Positions 16,593 through 58,135 of a DNA stretch of 64,000 nt are shown here, piece by piece (the stretch's first letter is position 1; each line of letters opens with the position of its first letter). Origin of the DNA: Promethearchaeota archaeon. GTDB lineage: Archaea > Asgardarchaeota > Lokiarchaeia > Sigyniarchaeales > SOKP01. The stretch covers positions 155,294 to 219,293 of the forward strand of contig JAHPZJ010000030.1 in NCBI GenBank assembly GCA_019058245.1, written 5' to 3'. Position numbers and translations under genes: made by a program. The notes below the pieces were generated by a model. The model was not told where the DNA came from, ran no database searches, and saw nothing but the letters and a program-made list of their open reading frames with translations.

Positions 16593-16810
16593 AAAATTGA
16601 AATGAAATTATGTAAGATTTTCAATAAAATAAAAAATTATGGGACTGTTATTTTAGTTTTTAATGAAAAATTCTAAATGAGGAAATTTAATGGCATTCCT
16701 AATATTAATACTCTAACTTCAGAAATAGATGATTTAATGCTCTTAAATTAAGCATTTTTTCTCATTTATAAAGAATTTTTTTAATAATCAAGTAGGAATA
16801 AATCTCATCC

Positions 16811-17761: not shown

Positions 17762-17978
17762 TCAGATTTAGTATATAAATAAACCTTTTTTAAAAATTAA
17801 GTCAATAGTTTTTATGTGTGAGTTATTTGCTATTGAATTTTGACAAGGATTAATTTTTAATTTTGAAAAGTATCTAAATGAGTTAAAAAAAATATTTTTG
17901 GCCTTTATTTTAATACAATAAAAATTTAAGTAATAACTATTTTATCTTTTAATGAAAGAATATACATGAGGAAATTTA

Positions 17979-18470
17979 ATGGCTCAATCAGAAGATGATA
18001 AAAATTTCTGTTGTCCCAAGTGCGGTAAAATTGGTACCATTACCTTTTTAAAAGCAAATGGGGATAAAATTATGGTAAAACAAAAATGTTCACAACATGG
18101 AATAAAAAGTTTTAAGGTGCCTCTATTACAAAAAGATAGTTTTATTCCTCATTTTCGCAAAGGAGTTTTTCGTTGCCCTGAATGTGGACAAAATACTATA
18201 GTGGAAAGCGCCAAAATGTCAGGACCTTGGATGATTGTAAAAAGTGCTTGTCCAACTCATGGTAATAATTTACCAGAACAAAGAATTTGGAGTACCTTAT
18301 ATGTTGATATTTCTAACTATACAGATATATTCAAGAAAGAAATTTCAAAAAAACAAACAGACCAACCCCAACCTACTCTTAGTGATGAAAAAAAGTTTTG
18401 TCCTAATTGCGGAACACCACTAAAAGAAGGTGGTGAATTTTGTGATACATGCGGGGCTAAAATCGTTTAG
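17979..18470 (+). CDS. multi zinc-ribbon protein (two CxxC...CxxHG modules plus a C-terminal double CxxC ribbon)
   Basis: 163-aa ORF. The modules are CPKCGKIGTITFLKANGDKIMVKQKCSQHG and CPECGQNTIVESAKMSGPWMIVKSACPTHG, followed by CPNCGTPLKEGGEFCDTCGAKI. Confidence 0.7.
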   Translation: MAQSEDDKNFCCPKCGKIGTITFLKANGDKIMVKQKCSQHGIKSFKVPLLQKDSFIPHFRKGVFRCPECGQNTIVESAKMSGPWMIVKSACPTHGNNLPEQRIWSTLYVDISNYTDIFKKEISKKQTDQPQPTLSDEKKFCPNCGTPLKEGGEFCDTCGAKIV

Positions 18471-18580
18471 ATAAATAATTTTTATGTTCACCTTTCTTTT
18501 TTCAAAGTATAATAAGAATTATTCAAAACAAAAGATTGATATGATTTTTTACTTTCATTTCAAGGAATTAATATTTATCA

Positions 18581-22167: not shown

Positions 22168-22271
22168 GCCTCCGTGGCTTAGTGGTAGAGCAGCAGACAG
22201 GGGTTCATTATTCAACCAACCCTGCATTTGTAATCTGCCGGTCGTGGGTTCAAGTCCCACCGGGGGCTCCA
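22168..22271 (+). tRNA. tRNA-Thr (anticodon TGT at 22229-22231) with a ~29-nt intron (about 22198-22226) and encoded CCA
   Basis: Manual cloverleaf: acceptor GCCTCCG/CGGGGGC, D arm GCTT-AGTGGTA-GAGC. Anticodon stem GCAGA (22193-97)/TCTGC (22234-38), variable CGGTC, T arm GTGGG-TTCAAGT-CCCAC, discriminator T, then CCA. The insert between the stem and the loop contains its own helix CAGGG/CCCTG. Either possible splice register gives anticodon TGT. Confidence 0.85.
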
Positions 22272-23219: not shown

Positions 23220-24794
23220 ATGAATAAGATCAATAGGATTATTCTTTGTATCATTGATGATGTTAGGGCTGGGCATTTTTTTGATTTTATTAATAGGGGT
23301 TTACTTCCTAATATAAAGAAATTGATGGAAAATGGAATTTATTCAGAGAATTGCATTACCGATTTTCCTCCTATTACCTATCCTACCCAAGTTTCGTTGT
23401 TAACGGGAACTTACACAGGTAATTATAAAAAGGAATTATGTCATGGGGTTCCTCTCCTTAATTGGATGGATCGTGACATAGTACCACCAATATTGCGAGA
23501 ATATGCCGCTTTAGATTTACAAATATATAAAATCAATGATGATATTGGAAATAACTGTCAAACAATTCTAGAAATGATTGGAGATGAGAATACAGCGAGT
23601 ATCGCACAGTTTATTAATAGAGGTTCCAATTATATTTTTCCTAATAGAAAAACGAAACTTGCAATGTTCTACCTTCTATTAAAATATTATCCTAGTGTTA
23701 AGAAAAGATTTATTAGAGCCAATTCTGTAATTGCCCAGAAATTAATTGAAGTTTTTAAAACACCAAAAAAATTCTTTGATAATGCAGAGCCTCCTATCGC
23801 TTCTTTGATATGGTTTATGTCCTCTGATCTCATAATGCATAAGTATGGATTCGATTCAAATATATATAAATTGAATTTACTTCACATTGATAAGGTTATT
23901 GGAGTTGTAATTAAAAGTTTAGAGAAAATGGGTTATTTGGAAGAGACAGCAATAGCAATTACTTCAGACCATGGAAATTATAAAGCTAAACAAAGAAGTA
24001 GTCTAAATGATTTTTTAAAACAAAATAGGTTAACCAATTATCATCCTCTCAAAAATTTAAAAGGGAATATGGATCTTGCTTATTATTCTGGAGTAGGTTT
24101 TTTTTATTTTAAAGGGAAGAACAATTCAAATAGTATAAATAAGTGGATTCGTCCTACTATTGAAGAACTTAAGAAGTATGGGCCCAAGAGTAAAAATCTA
24201 TTGGAAGAACTTTTTAAAATTCAGGGAAGTCATTTAATGTATTATAGAGACGATAATAACACATATAATAAAGGAGTAATTCATCTTAAAAGAAAGATTG
24301 AATCTACAGGCAAAATTATAACAGGAAGGATTGAATATGAAGGAAAAGGGATTGATTATAAAACACGTTATATTTTAGATAATGATAATAAGGATATATT
24401 TGATTTTATCAATGATAAGCAAGCAAGTAAGTTATTAGATAATAAATTTCACTCACCTCAAGAATGGTTAGAAGCAACTTATCATTTGGATTACCCTATC
24501 TATCCCGATTTAATACCAAGACACTTTAAAAATCCTAGAAGTGCAGATATTATCCTTAGTAATAATGAATCTGTAAAATTTGGAATACATCATGGAAAGC
24601 ATAAAAGCAAAAGCTTGTATGATCACGATATAGGTTTTCGAAAATGTATGGTTGTTCCTTTAATTATAGGTGGTTCGTTAGAAATTCCTCATGAGCACAT
24701 TCAATATTGTAAAATAACAGATATTGTTCCTACGTTATTAAAACTTATTGGAAAAAAACCTCACAACAGTGTAATTGGTTCAAGTTTAGTATAA
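23220..24794 (+). CDS. alkaline-phosphatase-superfamily enzyme, nucleotide pyrophosphatase/phosphodiesterase (NPP)-like, no signal peptide
   Basis: 524-aa ORF. It has an N-terminal metal ligand region CIIDDVRAG, a nucleophile region PPITYPTQVSLLTG (P-x-T-x-P...TG pattern) and ITSDHGN (DHG metal site). Confidence 0.65.
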   Translation: MNKINRIILCIIDDVRAGHFFDFINRGLLPNIKKLMENGIYSENCITDFPPITYPTQVSLLTGTYTGNYKKELCHGVPLLNWMDRDIVPPILREYAALDLQIYKINDDIGNNCQTILEMIGDENTASIAQFINRGSNYIFPNRKTKLAMFYLLLKYYPSVKKRFIRANSVIAQKLIEVFKTPKKFFDNAEPPIASLIWFMSSDLIMHKYGFDSNIYKLNLLHIDKVIGVVIKSLEKMGYLEETAIAITSDHGNYKAKQRSSLNDFLKQNRLTNYHPLKNLKGNMDLAYYSGVGFFYFKGKNNSNSINKWIRPTIEELKKYGPKSKNLLEELFKIQGSHLMYYRDDNNTYNKGVIHLKRKIESTGKIITGRIEYEGKGIDYKTRYILDNDNKDIFDFINDKQASKLLDNKFHSPQEWLEATYHLDYPIYPDLIPRHFKNPRSADIILSNNESVKFGIHHGKHKSKSLYDHDIGFRKCMVVPLIIGGSLEIPHEHIQYCKITDIVPTLLKLIGKKPHNSVIGSSLV

Positions 24795-24843
24795 ATTATT
24801 TAAAACTAAACCTTTACCTTCTTTTATTTAAAAATAGCATCTA

Positions 24844-24857
24844 TATAGAATATATAA
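24844..24857 (+). promoter_or_regulatory. copy of the recurrent intergenic word TATAGAATATATA(A), followed by GATATATAGAG
   Basis: The exact 11-mer ATAGAATATAT lies at 24845-24855. It is 246 nt upstream of the SBP gene and 120 nt upstream of a 32-codon TM mini-ORF. Confidence 0.3.
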
Positions 24858-25103
24858 GATATATAGAGATGTTAGTCAGATTTTATTAAATAAATATAAT
24901 AAATAGAAGATTATATTTTATCACAAACTATAATTTAATTTAGTTTTGATTCATTTACAAAAGAGTAAGGCAATTCTATGGAAAGAAAACTACTATATAT
25001 TATCGCTTTGTCAATTGGTTTATTATGTGGTATAATTTTAGCTTTTATTGATCATTTTATTAGATCTTTCATATAGATAAAATCTTATTAAAATCTGTTA
25101 ATT

Positions 25104-26228
25104 ATGAAACACACACGTAAAGTAAAAAGAGATAGTAAATTTGGAGTTATTTCTGTATTTATAATAGGATTTCTAATAGGGACATTTTCTACTAATTTTG
25201 TACTTCAAAGCAGAGGGGAAAGAACACATATAACAATAATTTATAGTTCTGAAAAGGCAAGTTGGATGACAGTTGCTTATTCTGATTTTATGGATGAGTG
25301 GCAAAATATTCATCCTGATGAACCAATCAGTATTGATATGCATCCTTATGGCTCTTCAAATTCAATCATTAGTATTCTTAATAGAGAAATTTATCCTACT
25401 ATATGGAGTCCTGCAAGTTCTCTTTGGATGCCATTTTTAAACTCTAAATGGGCAGATTTAACAAATAGAAACGATCCAATAGTAAATATTAGTGCAGCAG
25501 TTAAAATAATATATTCTCCCATAGTAATTGCTACTTGGGAATCGTTTAATAATACCTATAATATTAAGGGATTTAATGATGTACATAATCTGACAATAGA
25601 TCCAGATGTGAACATTAGAATGGCTCACACGGATCCCCGTTTGTCAAATTCAGGATTTATGACGGTGATTATGGCATTATCAGCAGCCTCTGGTATCTCT
25701 TCGGAGAATTTATCAATGTCTGATCTACAAGATTTAACTAATCAAAAATGGCTCAGAGAATTTGAATCCAGCGCTGTGGTATATGGGACTTCTACTGGTT
25801 TCTTAGCGCGTTATATGAAAAATGAGGGACCAACTGCTTTAAATATTGCTTTTTTATATGAAAATTTAATAAGAGATATTTCCAGTACTGCTACAGGAGG
25901 AAAAATTATTGCTGTTTATCCAGAGGAAGGAACATTATATAGCGACCATCCTTTTTGTATATTAAATGCTGATTGGATAACTGATCAGCAGAGAGTCGTA
26001 GCTGAAGCATTCCTTAATTTTTTAAATGAGAATGAAACAGTTTATTCTGCAATGGAATATGGATTTAGACCAATTAATCCTTCAATTGCATTAGATCCTG
26101 AAGTTTTTAATTATGAAACTAATGGAATTGCCTATGATCTTAATGTTCCTGAGTTACATATACCATTAGATGAACAAGTATTAATCAAAATCCCTGATTT
26201 ATGGCAATTGTGTAAAGCTACAGCATAA
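25104..26228 (+). CDS. membrane-anchored type-2 periplasmic-binding-protein-fold ABC substrate-binding protein, ligand unknown
   Basis: 374-aa ORF with an N-terminal TM anchor (VISVFIIGFLIGTFSTNFVL). ITIIYSSEK...PTIWSPASSLW and TDPRLSNSGF are patterns typical of SBP_bac_11-like binders. It is the first gene of a four/five-gene ABC operon. Confidence 0.6.
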   Translation: MKHTRKVKRDSKFGVISVFIIGFLIGTFSTNFVLQSRGERTHITIIYSSEKASWMTVAYSDFMDEWQNIHPDEPISIDMHPYGSSNSIISILNREIYPTIWSPASSLWMPFLNSKWADLTNRNDPIVNISAAVKIIYSPIVIATWESFNNTYNIKGFNDVHNLTIDPDVNIRMAHTDPRLSNSGFMTVIMALSAASGISSENLSMSDLQDLTNQKWLREFESSAVVYGTSTGFLARYMKNEGPTALNIAFLYENLIRDISSTATGGKIIAVYPEEGTLYSDHPFCILNADWITDQQRVVAEAFLNFLNENETVYSAMEYGFRPINPSIALDPEVFNYETNGIAYDLNVPELHIPLDEQVLIKIPDLWQLCKATA

Positions 26229-26246
26229 AAAGAAATAATAATTAAA

Positions 26247-27923
26247 ATGATAAAGAAAAATTATAAAAGAAATCAATATTTGAAAGAAAGTTCTCAAGAA
26301 GAAGAGTTGAATTTACCTTTAAGTTTAAAATTAGATAGATTCTTTTCTAAGTCAATATACAGAAAAAGTCTAGATTCTATAGTAATTCTCTTTTTTATTT
26401 TGGTTATTATAGGTCCGATAATCAACATTTTTTCAACGATTTTTCTAAATATTCCTGCTATAAATAAAGATGTTTTTAACGACCCATTGTTGGGAGATTT
26501 ACAATGGCATAATATGTTGAGAGCTTTAGGATCCTCCTTTTCAATTGCATCAATAGCCGTAGGGGTCGATATTATTATTGCTTTTCCCATATCAATCATA
26601 TTAACGAGATATAATTTTAGAGGTAAAAAAATACTTGATGCATTGGTAGATCTGCCAATGGCTGTACCTACTAGTGCATTAGGTTTTTCTATAATGTTAT
26701 TTTGGGGAATATTTGGAATATATCCGGGATTTACATTGATTGTGCTTGGACACATAGTATTCACATTCCCATATATCGTGCGAAACATGAAGATTGTATT
26801 AGAAAAATCCGCTGTTCTATATGAAGATGCCGCTCAAACCCTAGGAGCACCAGGATTCACAGTATTTCGAACTATTACGCTTCCATTGATGAAGGAGGGA
26901 TTAATAGCTGGGGCTATCCTTGCATTTACGAGAAGTTTAGGTGAAACTGGTGCAACAATTATACTTTCAGGTTTAATAGAAACAGCCCCAATTCTGATTG
27001 TGGGATATAGAAGGCAATTAGATTTACCCTCTGCTTCTCTATTAGCTGGAATACTAATAGTAATTTCTCTTTTACTACTCTTTTCAATTAAATTTATAAC
27101 TCGGAAAATAGGATTTCCAGTTAGTTCAGTATGGCCTAGAATAGAAAGATTTTTAAGTAAAAAGAATCTAAGACATATAAGAGATTTTTTAGCTTTAGGA
27201 ATCCTTTTTGTTGTAATTCTTATCCCTGCTTTTTATATTATAGTAGAAATAATTGGTGCAAATTTTGTAGAGGAAGTTTTCTTAGGAAAAGATTATAAGT
27301 GGGCATTTTTATATACGAGTTTTATTTACTCAATTGAAATAGGAGCTTTAGCTGTTTTTATAAATTTAATTTTTGGAATACCTTTTGCATTTATAATTAC
27401 AAAACGAAAGTGGGGAAAAGTAATCACCATTTTAGATACTATTTTAGATATCCCGATTGCAATTCCTTCAGCAGCTTTAGGATTTGCAACATTTTTATTT
27501 TGGGGTCCATCAGGCCTTGGTTTGTTTCAATCTGGATTTTTTATGATATTATTTGTACATATTGCTTTTACATTTCCATATATGGTTCGTCCAATTATTG
27601 GAGTTTTAGAATCTTCAAATAAGGGAGTTGAAGAAGCTGCTCGAACTTTAGGTGCTTCGAATATGACCGTTTTTAGGAAAATTACTCTTCCCAACATAAA
27701 GCAAGGGATTATTGCAGGATGTATAATGACTTTCACTCGCTCATTAGGAGAGACAGGTGCAACTATTGTTGTAATGGGGGGTATAAGAACCATTCCTGTG
27801 CTTATCGTAGATTTTGTTGAGGCAAATGCCTATGCCTCAGCAATATTTGCGAGTGTAATTATTATGATTTTTAGTGCATTCTTAATTTTTGCATTACGAA
27901 CAGTATCAAAAAAAAGAGGATAG
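26247..27923 (+). CDS. fused double ABC permease (two binding-protein-dependent TMD halves in one chain)
   Basis: 558-aa polytopic ORF. The EAA-loop-region motif occurs once per half, as AFTRSLGETGATIILSG and TFTRSLGETGATIVVMG. Confidence 0.8.
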   Translation: MIKKNYKRNQYLKESSQEEELNLPLSLKLDRFFSKSIYRKSLDSIVILFFILVIIGPIINIFSTIFLNIPAINKDVFNDPLLGDLQWHNMLRALGSSFSIASIAVGVDIIIAFPISIILTRYNFRGKKILDALVDLPMAVPTSALGFSIMLFWGIFGIYPGFTLIVLGHIVFTFPYIVRNMKIVLEKSAVLYEDAAQTLGAPGFTVFRTITLPLMKEGLIAGAILAFTRSLGETGATIILSGLIETAPILIVGYRRQLDLPSASLLAGILIVISLLLLFSIKFITRKIGFPVSSVWPRIERFLSKKNLRHIRDFLALGILFVVILIPAFYIIVEIIGANFVEEVFLGKDYKWAFLYTSFIYSIEIGALAVFINLIFGIPFAFIITKRKWGKVITILDTILDIPIAIPSAALGFATFLFWGPSGLGLFQSGFFMILFVHIAFTFPYMVRPIIGVLESSNKGVEEAARTLGASNMTVFRKITLPNIKQGIIAGCIMTFTRSLGETGATIVVMGGIRTIPVLIVDFVEANAYASAIFASVIIMIFSAFLIFALRTVSKKRG

Positions 27924-29073
27924 TCTATTGCCAACTATAGAACTAATAAACGTTACAAAAACTTTTAATGAAGGTAAGGTTCTAGCTGTTGATAATATCT
28001 CTGTGAAAATTGAGCATGGGGAATATGTTTTTTTGATAGGACCTACTGGATGTGGGAAAACCACAACACTTAGAATGATTGCGGGACTTGAAGATCCTAC
28101 TAAAGGTAAATTTTTGATTGATGGAAAAGACGTTAAAGGCATCCCACCAGAAGATAGAGATATGGGTTTTATTTTTCAACATTTTGAAATTTTTGATCAT
28201 TTGACTATATGGGAAAATGTAACCTTTGGTTTAGAAATGCGAGGTTATAACGATAATTATATTATTAAGGAAGCTGAGAAAGCTCTCAAAACAGTTGATT
28301 TATTACAATATGCTGATGAATATCCATCAATTTTTGGAAATCCAGGTTTACAAAAATTAGGAATAGCAAGAGCAATAGCAACAGGTGCTAAAATTTTGAT
28401 TATGGATGAGCCATTAGGATCTTTAGATCCTAAAGTATCCAAAGTTTTTCGTCATGAATTAAGAAATTTAGTAAAAGATTTAGGTCTCACAGCTATACAT
28501 GTCACTCATAATCAAGAAGAAGCGATGGCTATAGCCGATAAAATTATAATTATGAGAGGAGGAAAATTACTTCAGATGGGATCTCCTTATGAGTTATATG
28601 AAAATCCAAATAGTATATTTGTTGCAAATTTTTTAGGAGAAACTAATTTTCTTCAAGGATTTGTTTTAAAATTACTTGAAAATGAAGAAATGGAGATTAG
28701 AATACGTTTAGGAGGTCCAAAATTAAAAACGCATAATTTTGGTAACAAATTTGATTTAGATGATAATATAGTAATCGCTTATCGATTTGAAGATGTATAT
28801 TTATTTCCAGAAGACTATAATTTTAAAAATAGTCAATATGATTGGTCTCAAATGGAATTATTTGAAGTAATTTTAGAAACATCAAGATTTATTGGGGCAA
28901 CAAAAAGATTTTACTTAACATTGGATAACAATGAGAAGTTTATTTCGGTAAAACCAGGAAATTTTGAGGAAAATTTCATCTCTGGAAAAAAATTGATAGT
29001 TGGAATTCACAAAGATGATATTCATGTATTTAAAGCCCCTGATAACTTATTATCTGAACTTTCTTTATCGTAG
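27889..29073 (+). CDS. ABC ATPase 1 with C-terminal regulatory (TOBE-like) extension and a degenerate signature motif
   Basis: Walker A is GPTGCGKTT, Walker B is ILIMDEP and the H-loop is HVTHN. In place of LSGGQ the sequence reads SIFGNPGLQKLGIARA (28330-28362). The listed ATG overlaps the permease by 35 nt. A TTG just after the permease stop (about 27928, MPTIELINV) is an alternative start. Confidence 0.8.
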   Translation: MHYEQYQKKEDSLLPTIELINVTKTFNEGKVLAVDNISVKIEHGEYVFLIGPTGCGKTTTLRMIAGLEDPTKGKFLIDGKDVKGIPPEDRDMGFIFQHFEIFDHLTIWENVTFGLEMRGYNDNYIIKEAEKALKTVDLLQYADEYPSIFGNPGLQKLGIARAIATGAKILIMDEPLGSLDPKVSKVFRHELRNLVKDLGLTAIHVTHNQEEAMAIADKIIIMRGGKLLQMGSPYELYENPNSIFVANFLGETNFLQGFVLKLLENEEMEIRIRLGGPKLKTHNFGNKFDLDDNIVIAYRFEDVYLFPEDYNFKNSQYDWSQMELFEVILETSRFIGATKRFYLTLDNNEKFISVKPGNFEENFISGKKLIVGIHKDDIHVFKAPDNLLSELSLS

Positions 29074-29084
29074 GTGAGAAACTA

Positions 29085-30308
29085 TTGGTAAATATTAAAC
29101 TTAAATGCATCTTTAAAAAGTTTAGAAATTTCACAGCTTTAGAAAATATTTCACTAGAGATAAAAGATAAAGAATATTTTATTATTTTAGGCCCTACTGG
29201 TGCTGGTAAAACTACTTTACTTAAACTTATTGCTGGTCTTCTTAAGCCTGATTCGGGAAAGATATTTTTCGATGAGCAGGATGTTACTAAGAAATCACCT
29301 GGAGAAAGAAATATAGGTTTTATGTTTGAAAACTATGCATTATTTCCTCATATGAATGTTGTCGAAAACATTTCTTACAGTGGAAGAGTTCATGCTAGAG
29401 ATTCTCAAACAACCAAATCATTAGTTGAACAAGTATTAATGATGACTTTATTAACAAGAAGAGACGATGCATACCCAGATGAGCTTAGTGGGGGAATGAA
29501 ACAGAGAGTTGCATTATGTCGGTCTTTACTCAATCTAGAACAAACTAAATTATTGATATTAGATGAACCTCTAAAAGCACTTGATGCCGGACTTAGAATG
29601 AGTTTAAGAAGAGAATTACTTTTAATGGCAAAATCTAAAGAATTAGGATTAACAGTAATTCATGTTACCAATGACGAAAGAGAGGCCATGATGGTAGCTG
29701 ATAGAATAGCTGTAATTAATGAAGGAAAACTTATTCAAGTAGGAAGTCCTCATGAGATATATTACCATCCAATTAATCTTTTTGTCGCAAACTTTATGAG
29801 TGAAATCAATTATTTTGATGGAATTTGTGTTAAAAATAAAAAGCTAGAATGGGATATTCACAGTAAATCTAAACAGGGGGATAAATTCTTCAATGAGATT
29901 CAAGAAGAATCTGTTCCAATGCCAATAGATATTGGTTTTGAAAATACTTTCGCAGGTTATTTAAAAGAATCATTGTATAATAAAATTCAAGATAATGATA
30001 AAGTATTATTAGTTGTTCGAACTAACCACATGAAAATTCGATTGGGTAATCGCGTCAGTGAAAAAAGAAATGCAATACTGGGAACAATACTCCGTCGTAA
30101 ATTTATGGGAGTATTTTACCGATTCGAAATACTTGCAAAGGTAGATCATAAAGATAAAGTGATTATTGTTACTAGATCAGCCACTTATGAAATCCATAAT
30201 GCATTTTTAGAGAATTCTGAGGTAACCGTATATTTTCCTAAAGAATTGGGAATAATATTTGAGCACCCAGGTGATGAAATAATAAGAGAAGTATTAAAAT
30301 TAGAATAA
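29085..30308 (+). CDS. ABC ATPase 2 with C-terminal extension and canonical motifs
   Basis: TTG start. Walker A is GPTGAGKTT, the Q-loop region is FENYALFPHM and the signature is LSGGMKQRVAL (29484 onward). Walker B is LLILDEP and the H-loop is HVTND. Confidence 0.85.
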   Translation: MVNIKLKCIFKKFRNFTALENISLEIKDKEYFIILGPTGAGKTTLLKLIAGLLKPDSGKIFFDEQDVTKKSPGERNIGFMFENYALFPHMNVVENISYSGRVHARDSQTTKSLVEQVLMMTLLTRRDDAYPDELSGGMKQRVALCRSLLNLEQTKLLILDEPLKALDAGLRMSLRRELLLMAKSKELGLTVIHVTNDEREAMMVADRIAVINEGKLIQVGSPHEIYYHPINLFVANFMSEINYFDGICVKNKKLEWDIHSKSKQGDKFFNEIQEESVPMPIDIGFENTFAGYLKESLYNKIQDNDKVLLVVRTNHMKIRLGNRVSEKRNAILGTILRRKFMGVFYRFEILAKVDHKDKVIIVTRSATYEIHNAFLENSEVTVYFPKELGIIFEHPGDEIIREVLKLE

Positions 30309-30360
30309 AAATATTAAATAATATTGAAATAAATAAGAAATTTAAAAAAAAAGAGTTCTC

Positions 30361-31044
30361 ATGAGTTCTTTAATGGAATGGTTTAAATCGCGTAATGAAG
30401 AAAACGCAATGAATTTAACATTAGTTCATACTCAGAAAGTACTTGAATGTATTGTCGAATTTGATAAAGGATTATCCTTCTTACTTGAAGAAAAAAACAT
30501 AGACCTCGCATTAAAGGTTTTTTTTAGAGTCGATGAATTAGAACATCAGGCAGATGGGATTCGAAGAAATATTCTTAACATGTTATCACAGGCAGAACTT
30601 CCATCTAAAATTCGAGAGAATTTAACGCATCTTGTTAAAAGAATTGATGATATTGCAAATGCAGCCAACACGAGTTCAAGAATTCTTATCTCTATGAATC
30701 ATAAGGATTTTATGAATTTAGGAGAGGTTATCCATAAAAATATCTTAGAAATTTCAAAAATTTCGGTAGAAGCTATTAAAAAAGTAAATCTTATGGTAAA
30801 TGAACTTTTAAAAGCAGAAGAAGAAAAAACACAACAGCTAGGGCAAGAAGTTAACCTTTTAGAACACCAATGTGATGAAAAACATTACGCAATCAGTCGA
30901 AGTTTGGTATCAAATAATCTTGATATAAATCCATTTAGTGCAATAGTGATTTATAATTGTATATCAGCTATGGAAGCTATTAGTGACAATGCTGAAGACG
31001 TTGCGGATTATATCATTATGTTGACAGTAGCAAAAAAAATGTAA
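30361..31044 (+). CDS. DUF47/TIGR00153-type PhoU-related protein (putative phosphate-transport accessory regulator)
   Basis: 227-aa helical ORF. VDELEHQADGIRRNI and the C-terminal IYNCISAMEAISDNAEDVADYIIML resemble B. subtilis YkaA-type DUF47 proteins (E..GD and EEI.D..EDVA motifs). Confidence 0.7.
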   Translation: MSSLMEWFKSRNEENAMNLTLVHTQKVLECIVEFDKGLSFLLEEKNIDLALKVFFRVDELEHQADGIRRNILNMLSQAELPSKIRENLTHLVKRIDDIANAANTSSRILISMNHKDFMNLGEVIHKNILEISKISVEAIKKVNLMVNELLKAEEEKTQQLGQEVNLLEHQCDEKHYAISRSLVSNNLDINPFSAIVIYNCISAMEAISDNAEDVADYIIMLTVAKKM

Positions 31045-31051
31045 TTCTAGT

Positions 31052-31660
31052 TTACATGTTTTTTTGCTTTTTTACATTATCCTTTAGAAGAATAATCGAT
31101 TCCTCTCTCGCTTTCAGAAGAGATCTCTCTTTAATTCCTGCCATTTCTTTAGAGGGTAAGATTTTTTCCTTAATTACTTTTTTAAGAAGTAGATACTCAT
31201 CTTTTCTGCTAATAAAAGGATCTACTTTTTCCTCATGAATAAGTTCTTCAATAGTTGTATTTTTTCCATTACAATTGCCTTCTGTTAGATCAAATCTAAA
31301 ATTATTATATACCAAAAAGCAATGTACCATTGGTACATAAGGAATATTATATTTTTTTAAAATTTCATTAGTTCCATTTGAGATTTCTTCCGTAAATTTG
31401 TAAACCCCTACATGCTTATAGAGGGGAATGTCAAGTTCTTCAGCCAAACCTGCAATTATTGCATGCTTAGTTGTACAAGTACCTATATTTTCTTTAAACA
31501 AAATCATCCTATCCTCATAATCGGTATTATATCCATATTCAATATTATGGACAAAATCACAGGCTTCTCTAAATGATTTAATTCCAAGATCTATAAATTT
31601 TTTTGATATTTGTCCAATAGGTTTAATTTGAACATCAGGTAAATTAGAATATGTGTCCAT
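31052..31660 (-). CDS. hypothetical protein, possible transglutaminase-like Cys-His-Asp fold
   Basis: 202-aa ORF. NIGTCTTKHAIIAGLAEELDIP (Cys), then MVHCFLVYNNFRFDLTEG (His...Asp), with the spacing seen in transglutaminase-like cores. By eye only. Confidence 0.3.
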   Translation of the reverse strand: MDTYSNLPDVQIKPIGQISKKFIDLGIKSFREACDFVHNIEYGYNTDYEDRMILFKENIGTCTTKHAIIAGLAEELDIPLYKHVGVYKFTEEISNGTNEILKKYNIPYVPMVHCFLVYNNFRFDLTEGNCNGKNTTIEELIHEEKVDPFISRKDEYLLLKKVIKEKILPSKEMAGIKERSLLKAREESIILLKDNVKKQKNM

Positions 31661-31803
31661 TATAATCTGATTGATTATTTAAATAACTTTTATTCTTATC
31701 ACTTAATTATTATTTATTAAATTAATTCCTAAAAAATATAAGTAAAATTTAAGGAGTAATTTTTTACAAATCTAGATTTTACTCACTAGAGAGAAAAAAA
31801 AAA

Positions 31804-32457
31804 TTAAGAAATCTCTTTATGTTCTCCAGTTACCATGTAATGAACTTTCTCAGCAATTTTACATGCATGATCAGCACTCCTTTCTAAAAATCGTGCAATC
31901 ATACCAAAAAAGGCACAAGATGTTATTGTTTTAGGATCTTCCATCATATATGTTAAACATTCTCTGAATATTGACCATCTCATTTTATCGATTTCATTAT
32001 CCCTCTCCTCAAATTTATCGATGTATTTAATATCCGACTCATCAAAAGCTTTAAGTGCATCTTCAATCATTAGTTTTGTATGTTCCCACATATGCTGTAA
32101 ATTTACAAATGGGGCAGGATAAGGTTGTTTTTTTGAAATTTCCTCCACAACTGATGCAATATCTTTTCCATATCTCCCTATCCTTGCAAGATAAGTAATC
32201 ATTTTTAATATTGTTGCTAACCTTCTGAGATCTATTGCCATGGGTTGATAAAGAGCTATTAATTTCAAAGCCTTCGCTTCAATATTAGCATCCATCTCTC
32301 TTATCTTATGTTTTCTTTTCTCTGTAATTTTAGCTAATTCTATATCCTGAGTAGATAACGCCTTCATTGAATCATCTAACATTCCTAAAGCTAAATTACC
32401 CATATCAAGAACTTCTTTTTTTAATTCAAAAATTTCTCTATGTAATTCTTTAGCCAT
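31804..32457 (-). CDS. phoU: phosphate signalling/transport regulator PhoU
   Basis: 217-aa two-repeat helical protein. It has LIALYQPMAIDLRRL and ARFLERSADHACKIAE motifs and is the last gene of the pst operon. Confidence 0.85.
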   Translation of the reverse strand: MAKELHREIFELKKEVLDMGNLALGMLDDSMKALSTQDIELAKITEKRKHKIREMDANIEAKALKLIALYQPMAIDLRRLATILKMITYLARIGRYGKDIASVVEEISKKQPYPAPFVNLQHMWEHTKLMIEDALKAFDESDIKYIDKFEERDNEIDKMRWSIFRECLTYMMEDPKTITSCAFFGMIARFLERSADHACKIAEKVHYMVTGEHKEIS

Positions 32458-32467
32458 AATAATTCAC

Positions 32468-33301
32468 CTAACCAAATCTTCCAGTTATATAATTTTCTGT
32501 TAATTGATTGTTTGGATTTTCGAAAATTTGCTCAGTATTTCCAAATTCTATCAATTTTCCTAAATACATAAAACCTGTATAATCACTGATTCTTGCTGCT
32601 TGTTGCATATTATGAGTTACAATTATCATTGTCCATTGTTTCTTCAACTCAAGTATTAATTCTTCTATCTTTTGTGTTGCGATTGGATCAAGTGAAGCAG
32701 TTGGTTCGTCCATTAAAAGAATTTCAGGTTCAACTGCTAAAGCTCTTGCGATACATAATCTTTGTTGCTGACCTCCTGATAATCCCATCGCAGATTCATC
32801 TAATCTATCCCGAACCTCATCCCATAAGACGGCTCTCCTAAGGTTTTTCTCTGTAATTTCAGTTAAGATTTTATCGTCAATGATTTTATGAATTTTTGGA
32901 CCATATGTAATATTATCATATACAGACATTGGAAACGGATTAGGTTTTTGAAAGATCATTCCGATTTTTTTCCTATTCAACCTTATGTCTGCATTTTTCG
33001 AATATAGATTCTCTCCTTGAAATAAGACTTCACCCTCAATTCTGCATCCCTCAATTACATCATTCATGCGATTTAGGCAACGTAGTAAGGTACTTTTTCC
33101 GCATCCCGATGGTCCAATGATTGCTGTAACTTCATTCCGTTTGAATTTCATATTTATATCCATTAAGGCTTGAGATTCTTCATACCATAGATTCAAATTT
33201 CTGCATTCAATTACAGTATCATCTTGGTACATATTTGAATCATTTAAATTGTTCTTGTGTTCAATTTCTAACTTATTTTTATTTTTACTTTTAAAGACCA
33301 A
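32468..33301 (-). CDS. pstB: phosphate ABC transporter ATP-binding protein PstB
   Basis: [52 protein letters not shown] and [12 protein letters not shown] form the classic PstB pattern. Confidence 0.9.
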
Positions 33302-33307
33302 AACAAA

Positions 33308-35443
33308 TCACCATTGTTTTCTTTTTTCATATCTAGATCTTATAACAAATGCTACTCCATATAATATTAATACTAGTAATAATAATGTCAAGGCTGTACC
33401 AGCAGCTTCTTCTACAGAGAATAATGCTTCAGTGAGTAATCTATATAAATGGTAAGTTAGAGCCATTACTGGTTGAAAAATAGACAAGGTAATAATATAT
33501 CTAGAAGTTGTTCTAACAGCCGTAAACATAATTGGAGCCGTTTCTCCTGCACTTCTTCCCATTCCTAAGACGGCACCTGTAACAATTCCTGGTAATGCAG
33601 CAGGTAATACAATTTTACTTATTCCCTGCCATTTACTTGATCCTAAAGCTAAACTTCCTTCTCTAAACGACGGGGGAATTGCTTTAACTGCTTCTTCTGT
33701 AGTTCTTATTATTGTAGGAAGAATCATTAGACCTAAAGTTAACATTCCTGCTATTAGTGACTTTTGTAGTCCAAAAACTACTAGAAAGAGCACAACTCCA
33801 AATAAAGCAAATACTATTGAAGGGGTACCATTTAAATTATCAATTCCAGAACGTATAATTTTTGTAACTTTGTTATCCCTTGCATATTCAGAAAGATAAA
33901 TCCCAGCACACATACCAAGGGGTAAAGCAAAAGCAATAGATCCTAAGGTAAGTTGAATAGTACCTGTGATTGCTGGGAGTATTCCTCCTTCCATTGAACT
34001 AGCCGTAAGAAAATTAGGTCGATATGAGTCTTCCATTCCAGGAATTCTTATTAATACAGGAATACCGTTAGCGATAATATAATACAAGAGTGTTCCTACA
34101 GCAATTACAGCAAATGAAGAACATAAATATACAATTATAAACCAAAATTTTTCTTGACCAACAGTAGAAATTCTTTTAAATATAAGCCTAGTTCCAATAA
34201 TTAATGCAATTACAATAACAGTTAGAAATATTCCAATCCAAGTACTAAGTACCCATCCTGCAAATAACAAAATTACTCCATATAGTATCCATTTCTTTTG
34301 ATTTTTTGGTACTATAGTATACATTTGGAAAGTTAACCCTAATCCTATACAAATTATTGCTCCGACAACTTTAGAAATCATATCAGGTAATATGATAGCT
34401 ATAAAGACAGAGATAATTAAAGCTATTAGCAAAATTCTATATTTTAAAACTTGACTATATATCTTAGATTCTTTAAGATTCACATGTTTTTCTTTTACTT
34501 TTTCTCCTGTAAATTTTCTCTGAATTCTATTTAAAATAACATTTGCAATTGTATTTACCATCAATGTCATTATAAATAATGTTATTCCTAATGCAAAATA
34601 ACTCCTCCATTCTATGCTACCAGTCTCAGTTGGTCCCAAACCTAATCCAATAGTTGAAGTAATTACCGCCACACATGAGAACATGTTTGTTAATGGTTCA
34701 GGGAAAACTTTACAATTACCGATTACTAACATCATTGCCATAGTTTCACCTAAAGCTCTACCGATACCTAAAACTAGGGCAGCTGTAATACCAGACATAC
34801 CTGCAGGTATCACTACCTTACGAATAGTTTGCCATTTTGTTGCTCCCATAGCATATGAAGCCTCTCTATAATAATCTGGAACTGCCCTGATTGAATCTTC
34901 ACAGACCGATACAATTGTAGGTAAAGCCATTATTGCTAATATTAAAGATCCTGATAACCATGTATTTCCATGATGTAAACCAAATAAATCTCTTATTATT
35001 ATATTCAAGACCACAAGACCAAAGAAACCAAAGACAATTGAAGGAATACCAGCAAGAATTTCTATGGTAAATTTAAGAACTTTCCTAAGTTTTGGTGGAG
35101 CTAACTCAGCAAGAAATATGGCAGTCATTAATCCCAGGGGTAATGCGATGATTATAGCTCCGAAAGTAACTAAAAGAGTATCAACAATGATAGGTAAAGC
35201 ACCAAAATCTCCATGCGAAGGAAGCCAATTTGTCCCTAAAAGAAATTCTGTGAGAGATACTTCAGTAAAGAAAGGGCCTCCAATCACAAATAAAAAAATT
35301 ATTATTAAAAAAACAAAAATAGTTGCAATGGAGGCAATGAAAAATAGAATTATCTTGATAAGTTTATCTCTGTCTTTTTTTAAATAAGAATAATCTTCAT
35401 CCTCTATAAACACCTCATTTTCGAAAGTAGTTTCTGTGGACAT
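33308..35443 (-). CDS. pstC-pstA: fused PstC-PstA phosphate ABC permease with an extra hydrophobic linker region
   Basis: 711-aa ORF. The N half has the PstC-type GIGRALGETMAMMLV and the C half has the PstA-type GMGRSAGETAPIMFT. About 120 aa of additional TM segments lie between them (KYRILLIALIISVFIAIIL...IVYLCSSFAVIAVGTLLYYII). Confidence 0.85.
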   Translation of the reverse strand: MSTETTFENEVFIEDEDYSYLKKDRDKLIKIILFFIASIATIFVFLIIIFLFVIGGPFFTEVSLTEFLLGTNWLPSHGDFGALPIIVDTLLVTFGAIIIALPLGLMTAIFLAELAPPKLRKVLKFTIEILAGIPSIVFGFFGLVVLNIIIRDLFGLHHGNTWLSGSLILAIMALPTIVSVCEDSIRAVPDYYREASYAMGATKWQTIRKVVIPAGMSGITAALVLGIGRALGETMAMMLVIGNCKVFPEPLTNMFSCVAVITSTIGLGLGPTETGSIEWRSYFALGITLFIMTLMVNTIANVILNRIQRKFTGEKVKEKHVNLKESKIYSQVLKYRILLIALIISVFIAIILPDMISKVVGAIICIGLGLTFQMYTIVPKNQKKWILYGVILLFAGWVLSTWIGIFLTVIVIALIIGTRLIFKRISTVGQEKFWFIIVYLCSSFAVIAVGTLLYYIIANGIPVLIRIPGMEDSYRPNFLTASSMEGGILPAITGTIQLTLGSIAFALPLGMCAGIYLSEYARDNKVTKIIRSGIDNLNGTPSIVFALFGVVLFLVVFGLQKSLIAGMLTLGLMILPTIIRTTEEAVKAIPPSFREGSLALGSSKWQGISKIVLPAALPGIVTGAVLGMGRSAGETAPIMFTAVRTTSRYIITLSIFQPVMALTYHLYRLLTEALFSVEEAAGTALTLLLLVLILYGVAFVIRSRYEKRKQW

Positions 35444-35519
35444 AGATTTGCGAAATTCTCATTTCTAGTATTTAATTTTTATAGAAGTGAAATTTAGACT
35501 TAATATATTGATAATCCTC

Positions 35520-35538
35520 ATAGAATATATTCGAATAT
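35520..35538. promoter_or_regulatory. ATAGAATATAT word overlapping two nested palindromes (GAATATATTC, ATATTCGAATAT) in the pstS/pstCA intergenic spacer
   Basis: Read directly: exact 11-mer at 35520-35530, 10-bp palindrome at 35523-35532 and 12-bp palindrome at 35527-35538. TCTATATAAAATATATAG follows. Confidence 0.3.
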
Positions 35539-35692
35539 TTACTCTATATAAAATATATAGTATTTTACAAATGGGACAAAATATCTATTTAGTGATTTAT
35601 AGAATTAAGCCTAAATTGTGTAAAAAACAAATTATCTAAAAAAAATAATAAAAAAAATAAAGAATTAAGACCTTCTTATTTAAAATGCGATT

Positions 35693-36592
35693 TTATTTCC
35701 AAATTCGGATAAACCCTTCGGCTGCTACTTCTGCTTGTCCATGTGGACCATAAACAAAATCGATAAAAGCTTTAACCCATCCAGAAGCTGGTCCATTTGT
35801 GGTCAGATGTAGAGATCTTGAAATTGGATAAGAACCATCCAATATAGTAGTTTCACTAGATGCAACTCCATTTATAGGAACTGCTATTACACTAGAATCA
35901 ACATAACCTAACCCACAATATCCAAAACCATATTGATTTGCCGCAACAGTTGTGACCATAACAATATTAGAAGCTACTTCTGTAAATCCAATAACTGAAC
36001 TTTCATATCCAGCATCATCTCCTAATTCTACATCAGTATCAGATAAAACTAATTCTTCAAATGTTGCTCTTGTTCCAGAACCATCAGCTCGGGTATGAAC
36101 ATCAATTGTCTCAGATGATAAAGAAACATCAATATCATTCCATGTATCATAAGTACCATTGTAGATTAAAAAGACCTGTTGCATAGTAAGACCATTTGTT
36201 TGTAACCATAGAGCATCTGGATTACTAGCGTCTATAATCACTGCAATACCATCTTTCGCAAACTTATAATCTGTTAAATCATTACCTGCAGTTGTATTTT
36301 CGCTCGGTTTTATATTACGGGATGACATACCAATGTCATTTTGCCCGTCAATTGTGTCAGAGATACCATCTCCAGATCCTGTACCTGAAACAGAAATATC
36401 AACATTAGAATTTATCTCCATAAAATCGGCAGCACATGCAGTTATTATAGGCTCACATGTAGTGGAACCCGTGATAATGATCGATGATGTTCCTGCTCCA
36501 GAAGGAGTGACAAGGCTAGTAACTCCCCAACCGACGAAAAACATGGCAATCATACCAACAACAGCAATAATCCATATACCATTTTTTTCCAT
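35693..36592 (-). CDS. pstS: phosphate-binding protein PstS, membrane-anchored
   Basis: 299-aa ORF with an N-terminal TM anchor. ITGSTTCEPI, SGTGSGDGI and ADGSGTRATFEE are PstS-family phosphate-binding motifs. It is the first gene of the minus-strand pst operon. Confidence 0.85.
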   Translation of the reverse strand: MEKNGIWIIAVVGMIAMFFVGWGVTSLVTPSGAGTSSIIITGSTTCEPIITACAADFMEINSNVDISVSGTGSGDGISDTIDGQNDIGMSSRNIKPSENTTAGNDLTDYKFAKDGIAVIIDASNPDALWLQTNGLTMQQVFLIYNGTYDTWNDIDVSLSSETIDVHTRADGSGTRATFEELVLSDTDVELGDDAGYESSVIGFTEVASNIVMVTTVAANQYGFGYCGLGYVDSSVIAVPINGVASSETTILDGSYPISRSLHLTTNGPASGWVKAFIDFVYGPHGQAEVAAEGFIRIWK

Positions 36593-36701
36593 TTAATTTC
36601 ACAAATTTTTATTTAAAGACTTTTTTTTTAAATTGTTTAATTAGAGGTATTACTGGGAAAATATAAGAAATCACGACATAGATTATGTAGCATTATTTAC
36701 C

Positions 36702-36715
36702 CTATATATTCTATA
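36702..36715 (-). promoter_or_regulatory. 14-mer TATAGAATATATAG (minus strand), 109 nt upstream of the pstS start
   Basis: The plus strand reads CTATATATTCTATA. It is an exact inverted copy of the 14-mer at 36880-36893. Confidence 0.35.
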
Positions 36716-36879
36716 GAGAAATTCTTTATTTGGAATCTTATTCTCGACAAATAATTATTATGAGATTAATAACCATTTTAGTCTAAATCAAAAATTCTAA
36801 CTATATAGATTAAGAGAAATACAATTTTACTTTTTTGTCAATCTTTCTACTAATTAATAAAACATAAATATAGATATAA

Positions 36880-36893
36880 TATAGAATATATAG
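36880..36893 (+). promoter_or_regulatory. 14-mer TATAGAATATATAG (plus strand), 111 nt upstream of the AbrB-PhoU start
   Basis: It is an exact copy in mirror arrangement with 36702-36715. Additional TATATAG-like words lie at 36895-36901 and 36972-36979; the latter, about 30 nt before the ATG, is a likely TATA box. Confidence 0.35.
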
Positions 36894-37004
36894 AGTATAT
36901 AGTTGAAATATAAAATTGATTAATTATTTATTCTATATAATTATTTTGCAGAAATAAAGACATTTATTAATCTATATAGATAAATTAAGAGATAAGGGAA
37001 ATTT

Positions 37005-38009
37005 ATGTCATTTCATATAGAAACAAGAAAAGTACAAAAAACAGGAGGATCTTCCTATATTATATCTCTACCTAAAGTATGGATTGACAAACATGGGGTA
37101 GAAAAAAATGATACTTTAGGAATATTATCACAACCAGATGGAAATTTGTTGATAACTCCTCAGATTGAAAATGAAAAAGGTATTAAGACAAAAGAGATCG
37201 TTGTTGATGATTATAAGGATGAAAATTTTTTATTCCGGGTATTAATTGGAGCATATATTATGGGATTTTCTAGAATTGTATTAAAATCTAGTAAGAAATT
37301 TGAACCTTTAATGAGAGATACTATAACCAATTTCACTCAAATCGCAATAGGGCCAGAAATTATTGAAGAATCTAATAATTTCATTATGATTAAAGATTTA
37401 CTAAATCCTAAAGAAATGCCTTTTGAAAAAACAATAAAAAGAATGTATATTCTTGTACAGGATATGCATGAGGATGCAATCGATGCTCTAGAAACAGGGA
37501 AAAGCGAATTGGCTGAAGAAGTAATCAAAAGAGACGATGATGTTGACAGATTACATTGGTTGATTAGTCGTCAATCCCATATTGTATTGAGAGATATAAT
37601 TCTTTGCCAGAAAATGGGGATAACTTTAGAACAAGCGAGTCATTATCAACAAATGAGTAGATTCCTTGAAAGAATTGGGGATCATGCTTCAAAGATAGCT
37701 AAAAATGTCTTAATTCTTTTAAAACAAAAAATTGATGATAAGTTAAAGGATGAACTAAAAGAAGTAAGTAAATTGTCACTAGATTTATTGAATAAAAGTC
37801 TTGATGCTTGGCTTCAGAAAAGTATTAGTTTAGCGAATGAAAATATTGAAGAGATAAAAATATTAATCTCAATCACAGAGAAGATAAGTCTTAATACAAA
37901 TGTAAATGTGCAAGTTTCAATGGCGATAGGATATATTATTGAAAGTATAAGAAGAACGGCAGAATACTCTGGAGATATTTCTGAAATAATAATTAATAAT
38001 CTAGTATAA
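37005..38009 (+). CDS. AbrB/SpoVT-domain plus PhoU-domain transcriptional regulator (archaeal phosphate uptake regulator type)
   Basis: 334-aa ORF. The N-terminal swapped-hairpin motif is VQKTGGSSYIISLPKVWIDKHGVEKNDTLGI. PhoU repeats follow (DDDVDRLHWLI, SRFLERIGDHASKIAKN). It is divergent from pstS. Confidence 0.8.
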   Translation: MSFHIETRKVQKTGGSSYIISLPKVWIDKHGVEKNDTLGILSQPDGNLLITPQIENEKGIKTKEIVVDDYKDENFLFRVLIGAYIMGFSRIVLKSSKKFEPLMRDTITNFTQIAIGPEIIEESNNFIMIKDLLNPKEMPFEKTIKRMYILVQDMHEDAIDALETGKSELAEEVIKRDDDVDRLHWLISRQSHIVLRDIILCQKMGITLEQASHYQQMSRFLERIGDHASKIAKNVLILLKQKIDDKLKDELKEVSKLSLDLLNKSLDAWLQKSISLANENIEEIKILISITEKISLNTNVNVQVSMAIGYIIESIRRTAEYSGDISEIIINNLV

Positions 38010-57861: not shown

Positions 57862-58135
57862 AGAAGATCTTAAGATAAAATTTTAACAATTTATTTAAAA
57901 ACTTTTTAACAATTTAGAGAATTTAAAAAATAACTTATTGAATCTTAAATTCAATTTTTATTAACAAAAATCCAAAATTAATTGATTTTTTACAAAGAAT
58001 ATCGTCTTTATATTTTCTAACTATTTCTTAGTAAAATTGAATTAAAGATCAGCCATAACCTTATTATTGGATCGAAATTTTTATTAATATTATAAATGTA
58101 AATTTAAAAATTATACAATAGATGGTTTTAAGAAA

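Follow-up and report, generated by a model that had tools for sequence, protein, structure and literature searches.

Background

PhoU-like proteins control phosphate uptake by a mechanism that is still poorly understood. In bacteria, the PhoU-like regulators fall into three clades, each linked to one family of phosphate importers, with the PF01865 proteins (PitR) linked to PitA, and a pairing of a PF01865 (DUF47) protein with an ATP-binding cassette (ABC) importer is absent from that survey (PMC13170248, 2026). For the Asgard archaea, a census based on TCDB gave matches to the Pst family of phosphate importers for Odin- and Thorarchaeota only, and none for Heimdallarchaeota, Lokiarchaeota or the strain MK-D1 (PMC7997004, S1 table). 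Here we describe a stretch of 64,000 nucleotides from a Promethearchaeota archaeon (assembly GCA_019058245.1, contig JAHPZJ010000030.1, positions 155,294 to 219,293 of the forward strand; G+C content ~29%), hereafter the window, which carries a complete Pst system and, beside it, a second ABC importer whose operon ends in a DUF47 gene. We show that the DUF47 gene and this importer stay together across the Asgard archaea and several Bathyarchaeia, and weigh what the importer may carry, orthophosphate being the substrate that we consider most likely.

Results

Pairing of a DUF47 gene with an ABC importer

The genes from 24978 to 31044 form one conserved six-gene operon, encoding a 32-residue membrane protein, a substrate-binding protein (SBP), a fused double permease, two ABC ATPases (ATPase 1 and ATPase 2) and the DUF47 protein (Table 1). 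Gene families were assigned with the Pfam and NCBIfam models and their curated cutoffs. A preliminary description of this DNA, made from the sequence alone, had named a second complete ABC importer followed by DUF47, a Pst system and three PhoU-type proteins (DUF47, classical PhoU and AbrB-PhoU), and every gene in it was recovered at its position and in its family by the list of open reading frames and the Pfam and NCBIfam searches; to it we add the minus strand of the pst-phoU genes and the 32-residue gene, which it had missed.

The SBP was aligned with its homologues down to 34% identity, which gave 79 loci from species-representative genomes, and the proteins of the window were mapped onto these related loci by tblastn. 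Nearly all close homologues belong to Asgard metagenome-assembled genomes, under the labels Promethearchaeota, Loki-, Thor-, Odin- or Hermodarchaeota, and the window accordingly comes from an Asgard archaeon of the Lokiarchaeia type. The gene order SBP-permease-ATPase 1-ATPase 2-DUF47, which we refer to as the cassette, is kept from 92% down to 37% SBP identity, in Loki-type genomes, in the cultured Promethearchaeum syntrophicum MK-D1 (locus L062) and Lokiarchaeum ossiferum (L063), in Thor-, Odin-, Hermod-, Hod-, Heimdall-, Hel-, Sigyn-, Sif- and Borrarchaeal bins, and in several Bathyarchaeia. Adjacency of the DUF47 gene was counted solely in the loci with enough sequence to be evaluated, and it adjoins the cassette in all 68 of them, which is far beyond chance. 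As a rule it follows ATPase 2 on the same strand after a gap of 23-80 bp (52 bp in the window), and in a few lineages it is inverted or just upstream of the cassette.

No pst, PiT or NPP gene lies near the cassette in loci L001 and L003, in MK-D1 or in L. ossiferum, so the pairing of DUF47 with the ABC importer is independent of the rest of the phosphate genes found in the window. The preliminary description had treated these 15 kb as one phosphate 'super-locus', a view that does not hold for the region as a whole, as only about 7 of the 79 loci have pst next to the cassette. The pairing of DUF47 with the importer is real, even in genomes without pst or PiT genes nearby, and the conservation of the adjacency answers the doubt raised beforehand that it might be missing from relatives. 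The preliminary description knew of no characterisation of such a pairing; our literature searches likewise found no paper describing it, and in the searchable literature we found no account of the cassette system.

The DUF47 protein scores far above the PF01865 cutoff of 24.4 bits (Table 1) and, at 62.6 bits, stays below the TIGR00153 cutoff of 104.3. Its relatives in the PDB, 2IIU/2OLT and 3L39, are uncharacterised PhoU-like proteins. Among 29 diverse cassette-linked DUF47 sequences, the acidic residues E61/D65, D96, E168/D172, E205/D209 and D216 never vary, and E212 is retained in 27. The 64-kb window contains no PiT (PHO4) carrier. In the closest relative (L004), three genes at 16227-18717 stand between the cassette DUF47 and the gene for a conserved 202-residue protein, which are separated in the window only by positions 31044-31052; they encode a 220-residue protein without a Pfam match (p220), a PiT (PHO4) carrier and a second DUF47 paralogue (DUF47b). 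This p220-PiT-DUF47b module lies beside the cassette in about 30 loci, and the PiT modules in relatives thus carry a DUF47 paralogue of their own, separate from that of the cassette.

The first gene of the operon encodes a single-pass membrane protein (MERKLLYIIALSIGLLCGIILAFIDHFIRSFI) and, throughout 51 loci from the clade with at least 63% SBP identity, immediately precedes the SBP gene. Its entropy by codon position (1.06/0.65/1.39 bits) follows the pattern of a coding sequence. Diverged forms occur in the loci of MK-D1's relatives, of L. ossiferum and of Sigynarchaeum, and a scan of MK-D1's own locus detected none; in L001, the gene annotated at this place was called on the wrong strand. 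An Rfam search near the operon found no riboswitch or leader RNA.

Beyond the cassette, more distant relatives of the SBP (~30% identity; P0139-P0190, loci L083 and L084) are fused to VWA, Ser/Thr kinase or other binding domains and form paralogue arrays without a cassette-type fused permease, ATPase pair or DUF47 alongside, L083 carrying an unrelated ABC system ~3 kb away. Since these relatives lack adjoining cassette genes, the transporter-linked clade of the SBP is confined to Asgard archaea and Bathyarchaeia, and for the same reason they are uninformative about the ligand. They look like a large, uncharacterised, sensor-like family, and literature searches on SBP-VWA proteins found no description.

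Descent of the binding protein and the permease

Among the NCBIfam models, the permease fits best the TIGR00969 sulfate permease (247.7 bits, cutoff 240) and ModB (219 bits, cutoff 182.6), scores that sum the two fused halves, followed by CysT, WtpB and CysW, all three below their equivalog cutoffs. Against the PstA and PstC models, it scores only 64-66 bits (cutoffs about 195), and the one cassette ATPase with PstB among the matches listed scores 128 bits against a cutoff of 343.

The SBP had been described beforehand as not PstS-like, and this stands: it has a weak match to SBP_bac_11 (50 bits), belongs to no NCBIfam family and matches no Pst model, while hhalign gives it a probability of 5% of relationship to the window's own PstS. 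Of the families that had been proposed for a profile check, SBP_bac_11 thus gave a match, and the PstS, PhnD, PtxB and UgpB models, like that for PhnS, were unmatched. Among the NCBIfam models, including Sbp/CysP, ModA and WtpA, there was no match at E < 0.01. The single sequence and a profile of close homologues gave no relevant relative in the PDB. With profiles of the family, the matches among PDB binding proteins are sulfate-binding only (1SBP, 5UM2 and SubI; E = 1e-7 to 2e-5), with a remote similarity to 6DDN in the same range; the match to 1SBP has E = 1e-7 at about 15% identity. The preliminary description had held that a robust clustering of the SBP with a non-phosphorus ligand family would speak against a phosphorus substrate, and the clustering that we find with the sulfate-binding proteins is, at these values, a weak one.

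An AlphaFold2 model of the SBP, built on an alignment of 60 sequences (predicted local distance difference test, pLDDT, 94; the 26 close homologues alone gave a pLDDT of 46), has 5UM2 and 1SBP as its closest structures, with root-mean-square deviations of 3.2-4.3 Å, and TM-scores, normalised by target length, of 0.72-0.74. The next structural matches are other cluster-D proteins such as AfuA, PotD/F, FbpA and TbpA, and no PstS is among the 50 best matches listed. In the alignment of the SBP to 1SBP by hidden Markov models (HMMs), S84 falls on S45, N182-S183-G184 on S130-G131-G132, Y227 on A173 and Y252 on W192, and S49 falls on D11 by extrapolation of the alignment by hand only. These Sbp residues, D11, S45, S130-G131-G132, A173 and W192, are what we take to be the sulfate-contacting positions. 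The aligned SBP residues belong to the segments in which the family is most conserved and, in the model, sit at strand-to-helix junctions. Phosphate, by comparison with PstS, or molybdate and tungstate, by comparison with ModA, would fit the additional hydroxyl groups. Because conserved residues align with the Sbp contact positions, a small tetrahedral oxyanion is favoured over an organophosphate, a phosphonate or a polyphosphate-derived compound, and the substrate of the latter kinds suggested in the preliminary description becomes less likely.

Judged by their sequences, then, the SBP and the permease appear to be remote relatives of the sulfate, molybdate and tungstate systems rather than of Pst, and the importer as a whole would descend from the sulfate/tungstate/molybdate branch of the ABC importers, not from Pst.

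The ATPase pair

The two ATPases score highest against the PhnT2 and PotA models. In ATPase 1, the Walker A motif, the Gln of the Q-loop and the His of the H-loop are canonical and the signature is degenerate, reading IFGNPGLQK, GWGNGDLQR or LSAPELQR by lineage. ATPase 2 keeps the signature LSGGM, and its Q-loop Gln is replaced by Glu in all members and its H-loop His by Asn in nearly all. As all three changes fall in one composite site of the dimer, one ATP site is canonical and one degenerate. The C-terminal tails of both proteins have a weak, below-threshold similarity to TOBE_2, with which full-length alignments to PotA and GlcV agree. ATPase 1 may truly start at 27928, as its alignments to many homologues begin at residue 14.

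Two loci from Bathyarchaeia (L077 and L082) have a single, fully canonical ATPase (LSGGMMQR, HVTHDQ) followed by DUF47, possibly the ancestral homodimeric form of the cassette. Since these loci have DUF47 together with a single canonical ATPase, the association with DUF47 is probably older than the asymmetry of the ATPases.

DNA boxes shared by the importer and the abrB-phoU gene

Two clusters of short boxes, made of the palindrome TCTATATAGA and its core ATATAGA, lie upstream of the importer operon and between the divergent pstS and abrB-phoU genes (Table 1). The exact palindrome stands at 24840-24849 and the core at 24840, 24843 and 24861, and seven matches to the core fall between 36803 and 36974. 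These two places, 24840-24861 and 36803-36974, are the only ones in the window with at least three ATATAGA matches per 500-bp bin. Over the whole window, TCTATATAGA with one mismatch is not enriched (9 matches against 7.45 expected), so that the clustering alone is informative. A further cluster of boxes at 63490-63535 was dismissed, as it lies inside a coding region.

Among 53 related loci, ATATAGA is present in 42 of the 45 regions upstream of the SBP gene (4.35 per kb) and in all 19 regions upstream of abrB-phoU (8-11 per kb), against a background of 20% of 163 other intergenic regions (1.08 per kb); the region upstream of the NPP gene is not enriched (0.86 per kb). Retention of the boxes in spacers that have diverged marks a footprint, read with the proviso that the loci are related and the counts non-independent, and the clusters may represent an Asgard 'Pho box'.

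Phosphate-related neighbours

The protein encoded divergently from pstS combines an AbrB/MazE DNA-binding domain with a PhoU domain, its PDB relatives being PhoU proteins such as 1T72, and is a candidate transcription factor of a phosphate regulon. Its gene adjoins the cassette in many loci of the Loki type, and does so independently in Bathyarchaeia (L071, L075) and Helarchaeota (L079). Literature searches on AbrB-PhoU proteins in archaea found no description. The pst and NPP genes also recur beside the cassette, so that, with AbrB-PhoU and PiT-DUF47, phosphate-related neighbours occur in at least three separate lineages. The link to a Pho regulon drawn in the preliminary description therefore keeps its support from these recurrent neighbours and from the boxes held in common with abrB-phoU, and loses it for the NPP-like gene, which lacks the boxes.

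Every gene of the pstS-pstCA-pstB-phoU system reaches the curated NCBIfam cutoff, and this Pst system is complete, as had been noted. The NPP-like enzyme carries its metal-binding IDD motif at residues 11-13; since this leaves no room for a signal peptide, the enzyme is cytoplasmic, and the earlier assignment to a cytoplasmic member of the alkaline-phosphatase superfamily is borne out. Its gene lies upstream of the SBP gene in many of the loci with at least 63% SBP identity and is absent from all those that are more distant; it is a frequent neighbour of the importer outside the core operon. The 202-residue protein has no match in Pfam, NCBIfam or the PDB, and about 18 loci have a copy of 68-86% identity next to the importer or to abrB-phoU, a recurrence that suggests a so far unrecognised component of the phosphate island.

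Neighbours of another kind are rare: genes for enzymes of the molybdenum or tungsten type lie beside the cassette in only 3 of the 79 loci, all of which were searched. MK-D1, for which the census reported no Pst, carries the cassette. We considered whether the 'vanadate' system of that census could be the same importer, and rejected this, as it is a different, unfused system (PMC7997004, S1 table).

Table 1. Features of the importer operon and its surroundings in the window
Feature	Position	Strand	Remarks
NPP-like enzyme, alkaline-phosphatase superfamily, ~240-aa C-terminal extension	23220..24794	+	Phosphodiest PF01663, 93 bits
Box cluster, TCTATATAGA/ATATAGA, upstream of the importer operon	24838..24870		putative regulator sites
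Small gene, 32-aa single-pass membrane protein	24978..25076	+	unannotated; first in operon
Membrane-anchored SBP, new family, remote kin of sulfate-binding proteins	25104..26228	+	SBP_bac_11 50 bits; no NCBIfam family
Fused double permease, sulfate/molybdate/tungstate type	26247..27923	+	two BPD_transp_1 domains
ATPase 1, ABC ATPase	27889..29073	+	degenerate signature IFGNPGLQK; weak TOBE-like C-terminal domain
ATPase 2, ABC ATPase	29085..30308	+	LSGGM canonical; long divergent TOBE-like C-terminal domain
DUF47/PhoU_div (PitR-type) protein, last operon gene	30361..31044	+	PF01865 82.6 bits
202-aa protein, conserved, unknown family	31052..31660	-	between DUF47 and phoU
Classical PhoU	31804..32457	-	TIGR02135 180 bits vs cutoff 130; two PhoU stretches; directly 3' of pstB
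PstB	32468..33301	-	TIGR00972 406 bits vs cutoff 343
Fused PstC-PstA permease	33308..35443	-	TIGR02138 424 bits, TIGR00974 415 bits
PstS	35693..36592	-	PBP_like_2 126 bits; TIGR02136 207 vs cutoff 206.6
Box cluster, TCTATATAGA/ATATAGA, divergent pstS/abrB-phoU intergenic region	36800..36980		putative regulator sites
AbrB/MazE DNA-binding domain + PhoU domain	37005..38009	+	PF04014 40 bits, PF01895 82 bits

Other genes of the window

Elsewhere in the window, an open reading frame of 2866 codons without a Pfam domain (41844-50444, plus strand) occupies the most AT-rich part, at about 22% G+C. A tRNA match on the plus strand at 22168-22268 spans 101 nt for a model of 71 positions and is probably an intron-containing archaeal tRNA gene. 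The plus-strand genes at 50617-59836 encode a Liv-type ABC importer (Peripla_BP_6 and two BPD_transp_2), a 477-residue HEAT-repeat protein and an AMP-binding enzyme; nothing evident ties these ordinary neighbours to the importer described here.

Discussion

The reading that we prefer, at a probability of roughly 0.45-0.5, is that the cassette encodes an importer under phosphate regulation, which takes up a small tetrahedral oxyanion, orthophosphate being the likeliest, and is gated by its DUF47 protein. The linkage of DUF47 to a non-Pst importer suggests a second, independently evolved uptake system of the phosphate type with a regulator of its own. The SBP would capture the small tetrahedral oxyanion, orthophosphate most likely, with Ser, Thr, Asn, Gly and Tyr residues in loops at the N-termini of helices. 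Transport would be driven mainly by one competent ATP site, made of the Walker A, Q-loop and H-loop of ATPase 1 and the LSGGM signature of ATPase 2, while the other site, with the Glu Q-loop and Asn H-loop of ATPase 2 and the degenerate signature of ATPase 1, would bind ATP and scarcely hydrolyse it. The DUF47 protein could dock on the ATPase dimer or on the TOBE-like tails of that dimer, by analogy with PhoU on PstB and with PitR and PitA, and would throttle import once cytoplasmic phosphate suffices; it may also report the status of the transporter to AbrB-PhoU. In turn, AbrB-PhoU would bind the TCTATATAGA boxes 5' of its own gene, next to pstS, and of the importer operon, and binding at both places would therefore bring the two uptake systems into one phosphate regulon.

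Several points weigh against a phosphate importer. The nearest relatives of the SBP bind sulfate, those of the permease carry sulfate, molybdate and tungstate, and we know of no phosphate-carrying member of this branch. A second ABC importer for phosphate is not obviously needed, because the window already has a complete Pst system. In MK-D1, a gene for a molybdopterin oxidoreductase directly follows the cassette (L062, 16358-17392), and in the related Bathyarchaeia L071 (7085-8944 and 18330-20204) and L075 (18054-18482) the cassette is flanked by genes for tungsten-type aldehyde:ferredoxin oxidoreductases (AOR). As for regulation, the boxes and the genome are both AT-rich and the related loci are non-independent samples, and the boxes lie 110-140 bp 5' of the start codon of the 32-residue gene, far for a simple archaeal repressor site. 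Both the binding of AbrB-PhoU to the boxes and that of DUF47 to the ATPases are purely what we infer.

These points lead to the alternative that the cassette imports one of the phosphorus-free oxyanions typical of its branch, tungstate, molybdate, vanadate, sulfate or thiosulfate, in which case DUF47 would have been recruited from phosphate systems as a regulator of transport in general, and the phosphate neighbourhood would be an island of anion homeostasis or mere synteny. We consider this unlikely, even though the permease reaches the cutoffs of the sulfate permease and ModB (solely with both halves summed), the SBP profile matches only sulfate-binding proteins, with the ligand positions of Sbp matched, and a pocket with the hydroxyls of Tyr and Ser also resembles ModA. 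The SBP matches none of the NCBIfam models for Sbp/CysP, ModA or WtpA. The oxidoreductase of MK-D1 and the AOR genes of L071 and L075, to which an AOR gene near the distant SBP paralogues of L083 can be added, are set against phosphate-related neighbours that are frequent and come from three lineages. The boxes are common to the upstream regions of the importer and of abrB-phoU, and genes of sulfate assimilation were not seen in the flanks examined. Furthermore, the PhoU-like regulators characterised so far all pair with phosphate importers (PMC13170248), and a separate, unfused system of the tungstate/vanadate type is present in Loki GC14_75 (PMC7997004, S1 table).

The version of the preliminary description, in which an organophosphorus or reduced phosphorus compound (a phosphonate, phosphoester or phosphite) is imported and then processed in the cytoplasm, for instance by the NPP-like enzyme, seems to us decidedly improbable. 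In its favour, many Loki-type loci have the gene of this cytoplasmic enzyme directly upstream, the ATPases score best with the PhnT2 and PotA models, and the sugar-phosphate binders AfuA and VcA0625 are among the structural neighbours of the SBP; the numerous Trp and Tyr residues conserved in the SBP could also form the lining of a larger pocket. However, conserved small polar residues are aligned with the positions at which Sbp contacts sulfate, which is what a bare oxyanion site would call for, the SBP is unmatched by the models for PhnD, PtxB, UgpB and PhnS, and the NPP gene is found in no locus below 63% SBP identity and does not share the boxes. Nor were genes for phosphonate catabolism or phosphite dehydrogenase recognised among the window genes scanned. 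As for DUF47 itself, it might have no functional tie to the importer and belong, as a remnant or satellite, to a PiT module next door, its adjacency being inherited synteny; the module beside the cassette in L004 and about 30 other loci would fit this, as would a simple distance tree without a bacterial outgroup, on which we do not rely, where the PiT-linked DUF47 paralogues nest among the ABC-linked ones. This can hardly be so, and is largely refuted by the presence of the cassette DUF47 in 68 of 68 loci, including those with no PiT within 10 kb and the distant Bathyarchaeia, by the spacing of 23-80 bp, on one strand, that in most loci separates it from the ATPase 2 gene before it, and by the separate DUF47 paralogue that the PiT module, where present, has for itself.

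Going beyond the phosphate-regulated oxyanion importer in general, we tentatively propose, with the odds somewhat against us, that the cassette represents an unrecognised family of phosphate ABC importers in Asgard archaea and Bathyarchaeia, which arose from the sulfate/tungstate branch independently of Pst and has a DUF47 gatekeeper of its own, a built-in degenerate ATP site and a 32-residue membrane subunit. On that equally tentative footing, the pairings between PhoU-type regulators and phosphate transporters would grow to four. In lineages such as MK-D1, where no Pst was found, the cassette could be the main ATP-driven route of phosphate uptake.

A DUF47 protein locked to a non-Pst ABC importer would extend the picture of three regulator clades to the archaea, and the cassette would offer a simple system in which to ask how PhoU-like proteins gate a transporter. 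Should the substrate prove to be phosphate, ABC importers would have gained high-affinity phosphate import on two occasions, and the cassette would fill a gap in Asgard physiology, the census having no Pst in MK-D1. Should it be tungstate, molybdate or sulfate, proteins of the PhoU family would regulate more than phosphate transport. Because the operon occurs in both cultured Asgard archaea, these ideas are open to experimental testing, and annotation of such genomes can make direct use of the 32-residue gene and the candidate regulator boxes.

Comparison with known systems

Heterodimeric ABC transporters with one degenerate ATP site are known, of the TM287/288, TAP1/2 and CFTR type, the known examples being mostly exporters. 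As in these, the noncanonical Q- and H-loops of one cassette ATPase and the noncanonical signature of its partner meet in the same composite site. Unlike them, the cassette is a type I importer dependent on a binding protein, and its degeneracy would have arisen after the association with DUF47, given the single canonical ATPase with DUF47 in some Bathyarchaeia. ModBC, MetNI and MalK are trans-inhibited importers with C-terminal regulatory domains. Both cassette ATPases likewise carry C-terminal extensions with weak similarity to TOBE_2, but these matches are below threshold, the tail of ATPase 2 is longer and divergent, and regulation is proposed to act through the separate DUF47 protein.

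The sulfate, tungstate and molybdate systems CysPTWA/Sbp, WtpABC and ModABC include the closest sequence relatives of the permease, the sole PDB sequence relatives of the SBP and its best structural matches, and their anion-contact positions are matched in the SBP. They differ in that the SBP shares only ~15% identity and no curated Sbp, ModA or WtpA match with them, and in the fused permease, asymmetric heterodimeric ATPases, DUF47, phosphate neighbourhood and shared boxes of the cassette. With PitA-PitR, the cassette has in common an accessory protein of the same family, PF01865, with conserved acidic E/D motifs, and PiT-DUF47 modules are found in the same genomes; the partner of the cassette DUF47, in contrast, is an ATP-driven ABC importer and not a secondary carrier. 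The PstSCAB-PhoU system of the PhoT family resembles the cassette in being an SBP-dependent ABC importer with an accessory of the PhoU superfamily encoded last, beside genes of the phosphate regulon, and the window's own Pst also has a fused double permease. Yet the SBP, permease and ATPases of the cassette fail the Pst models, its accessory is a PhoU_div/DUF47 protein instead of a two-domain PhoU, and it has two different ATPases with one degenerate site as well as the additional 32-residue membrane protein.

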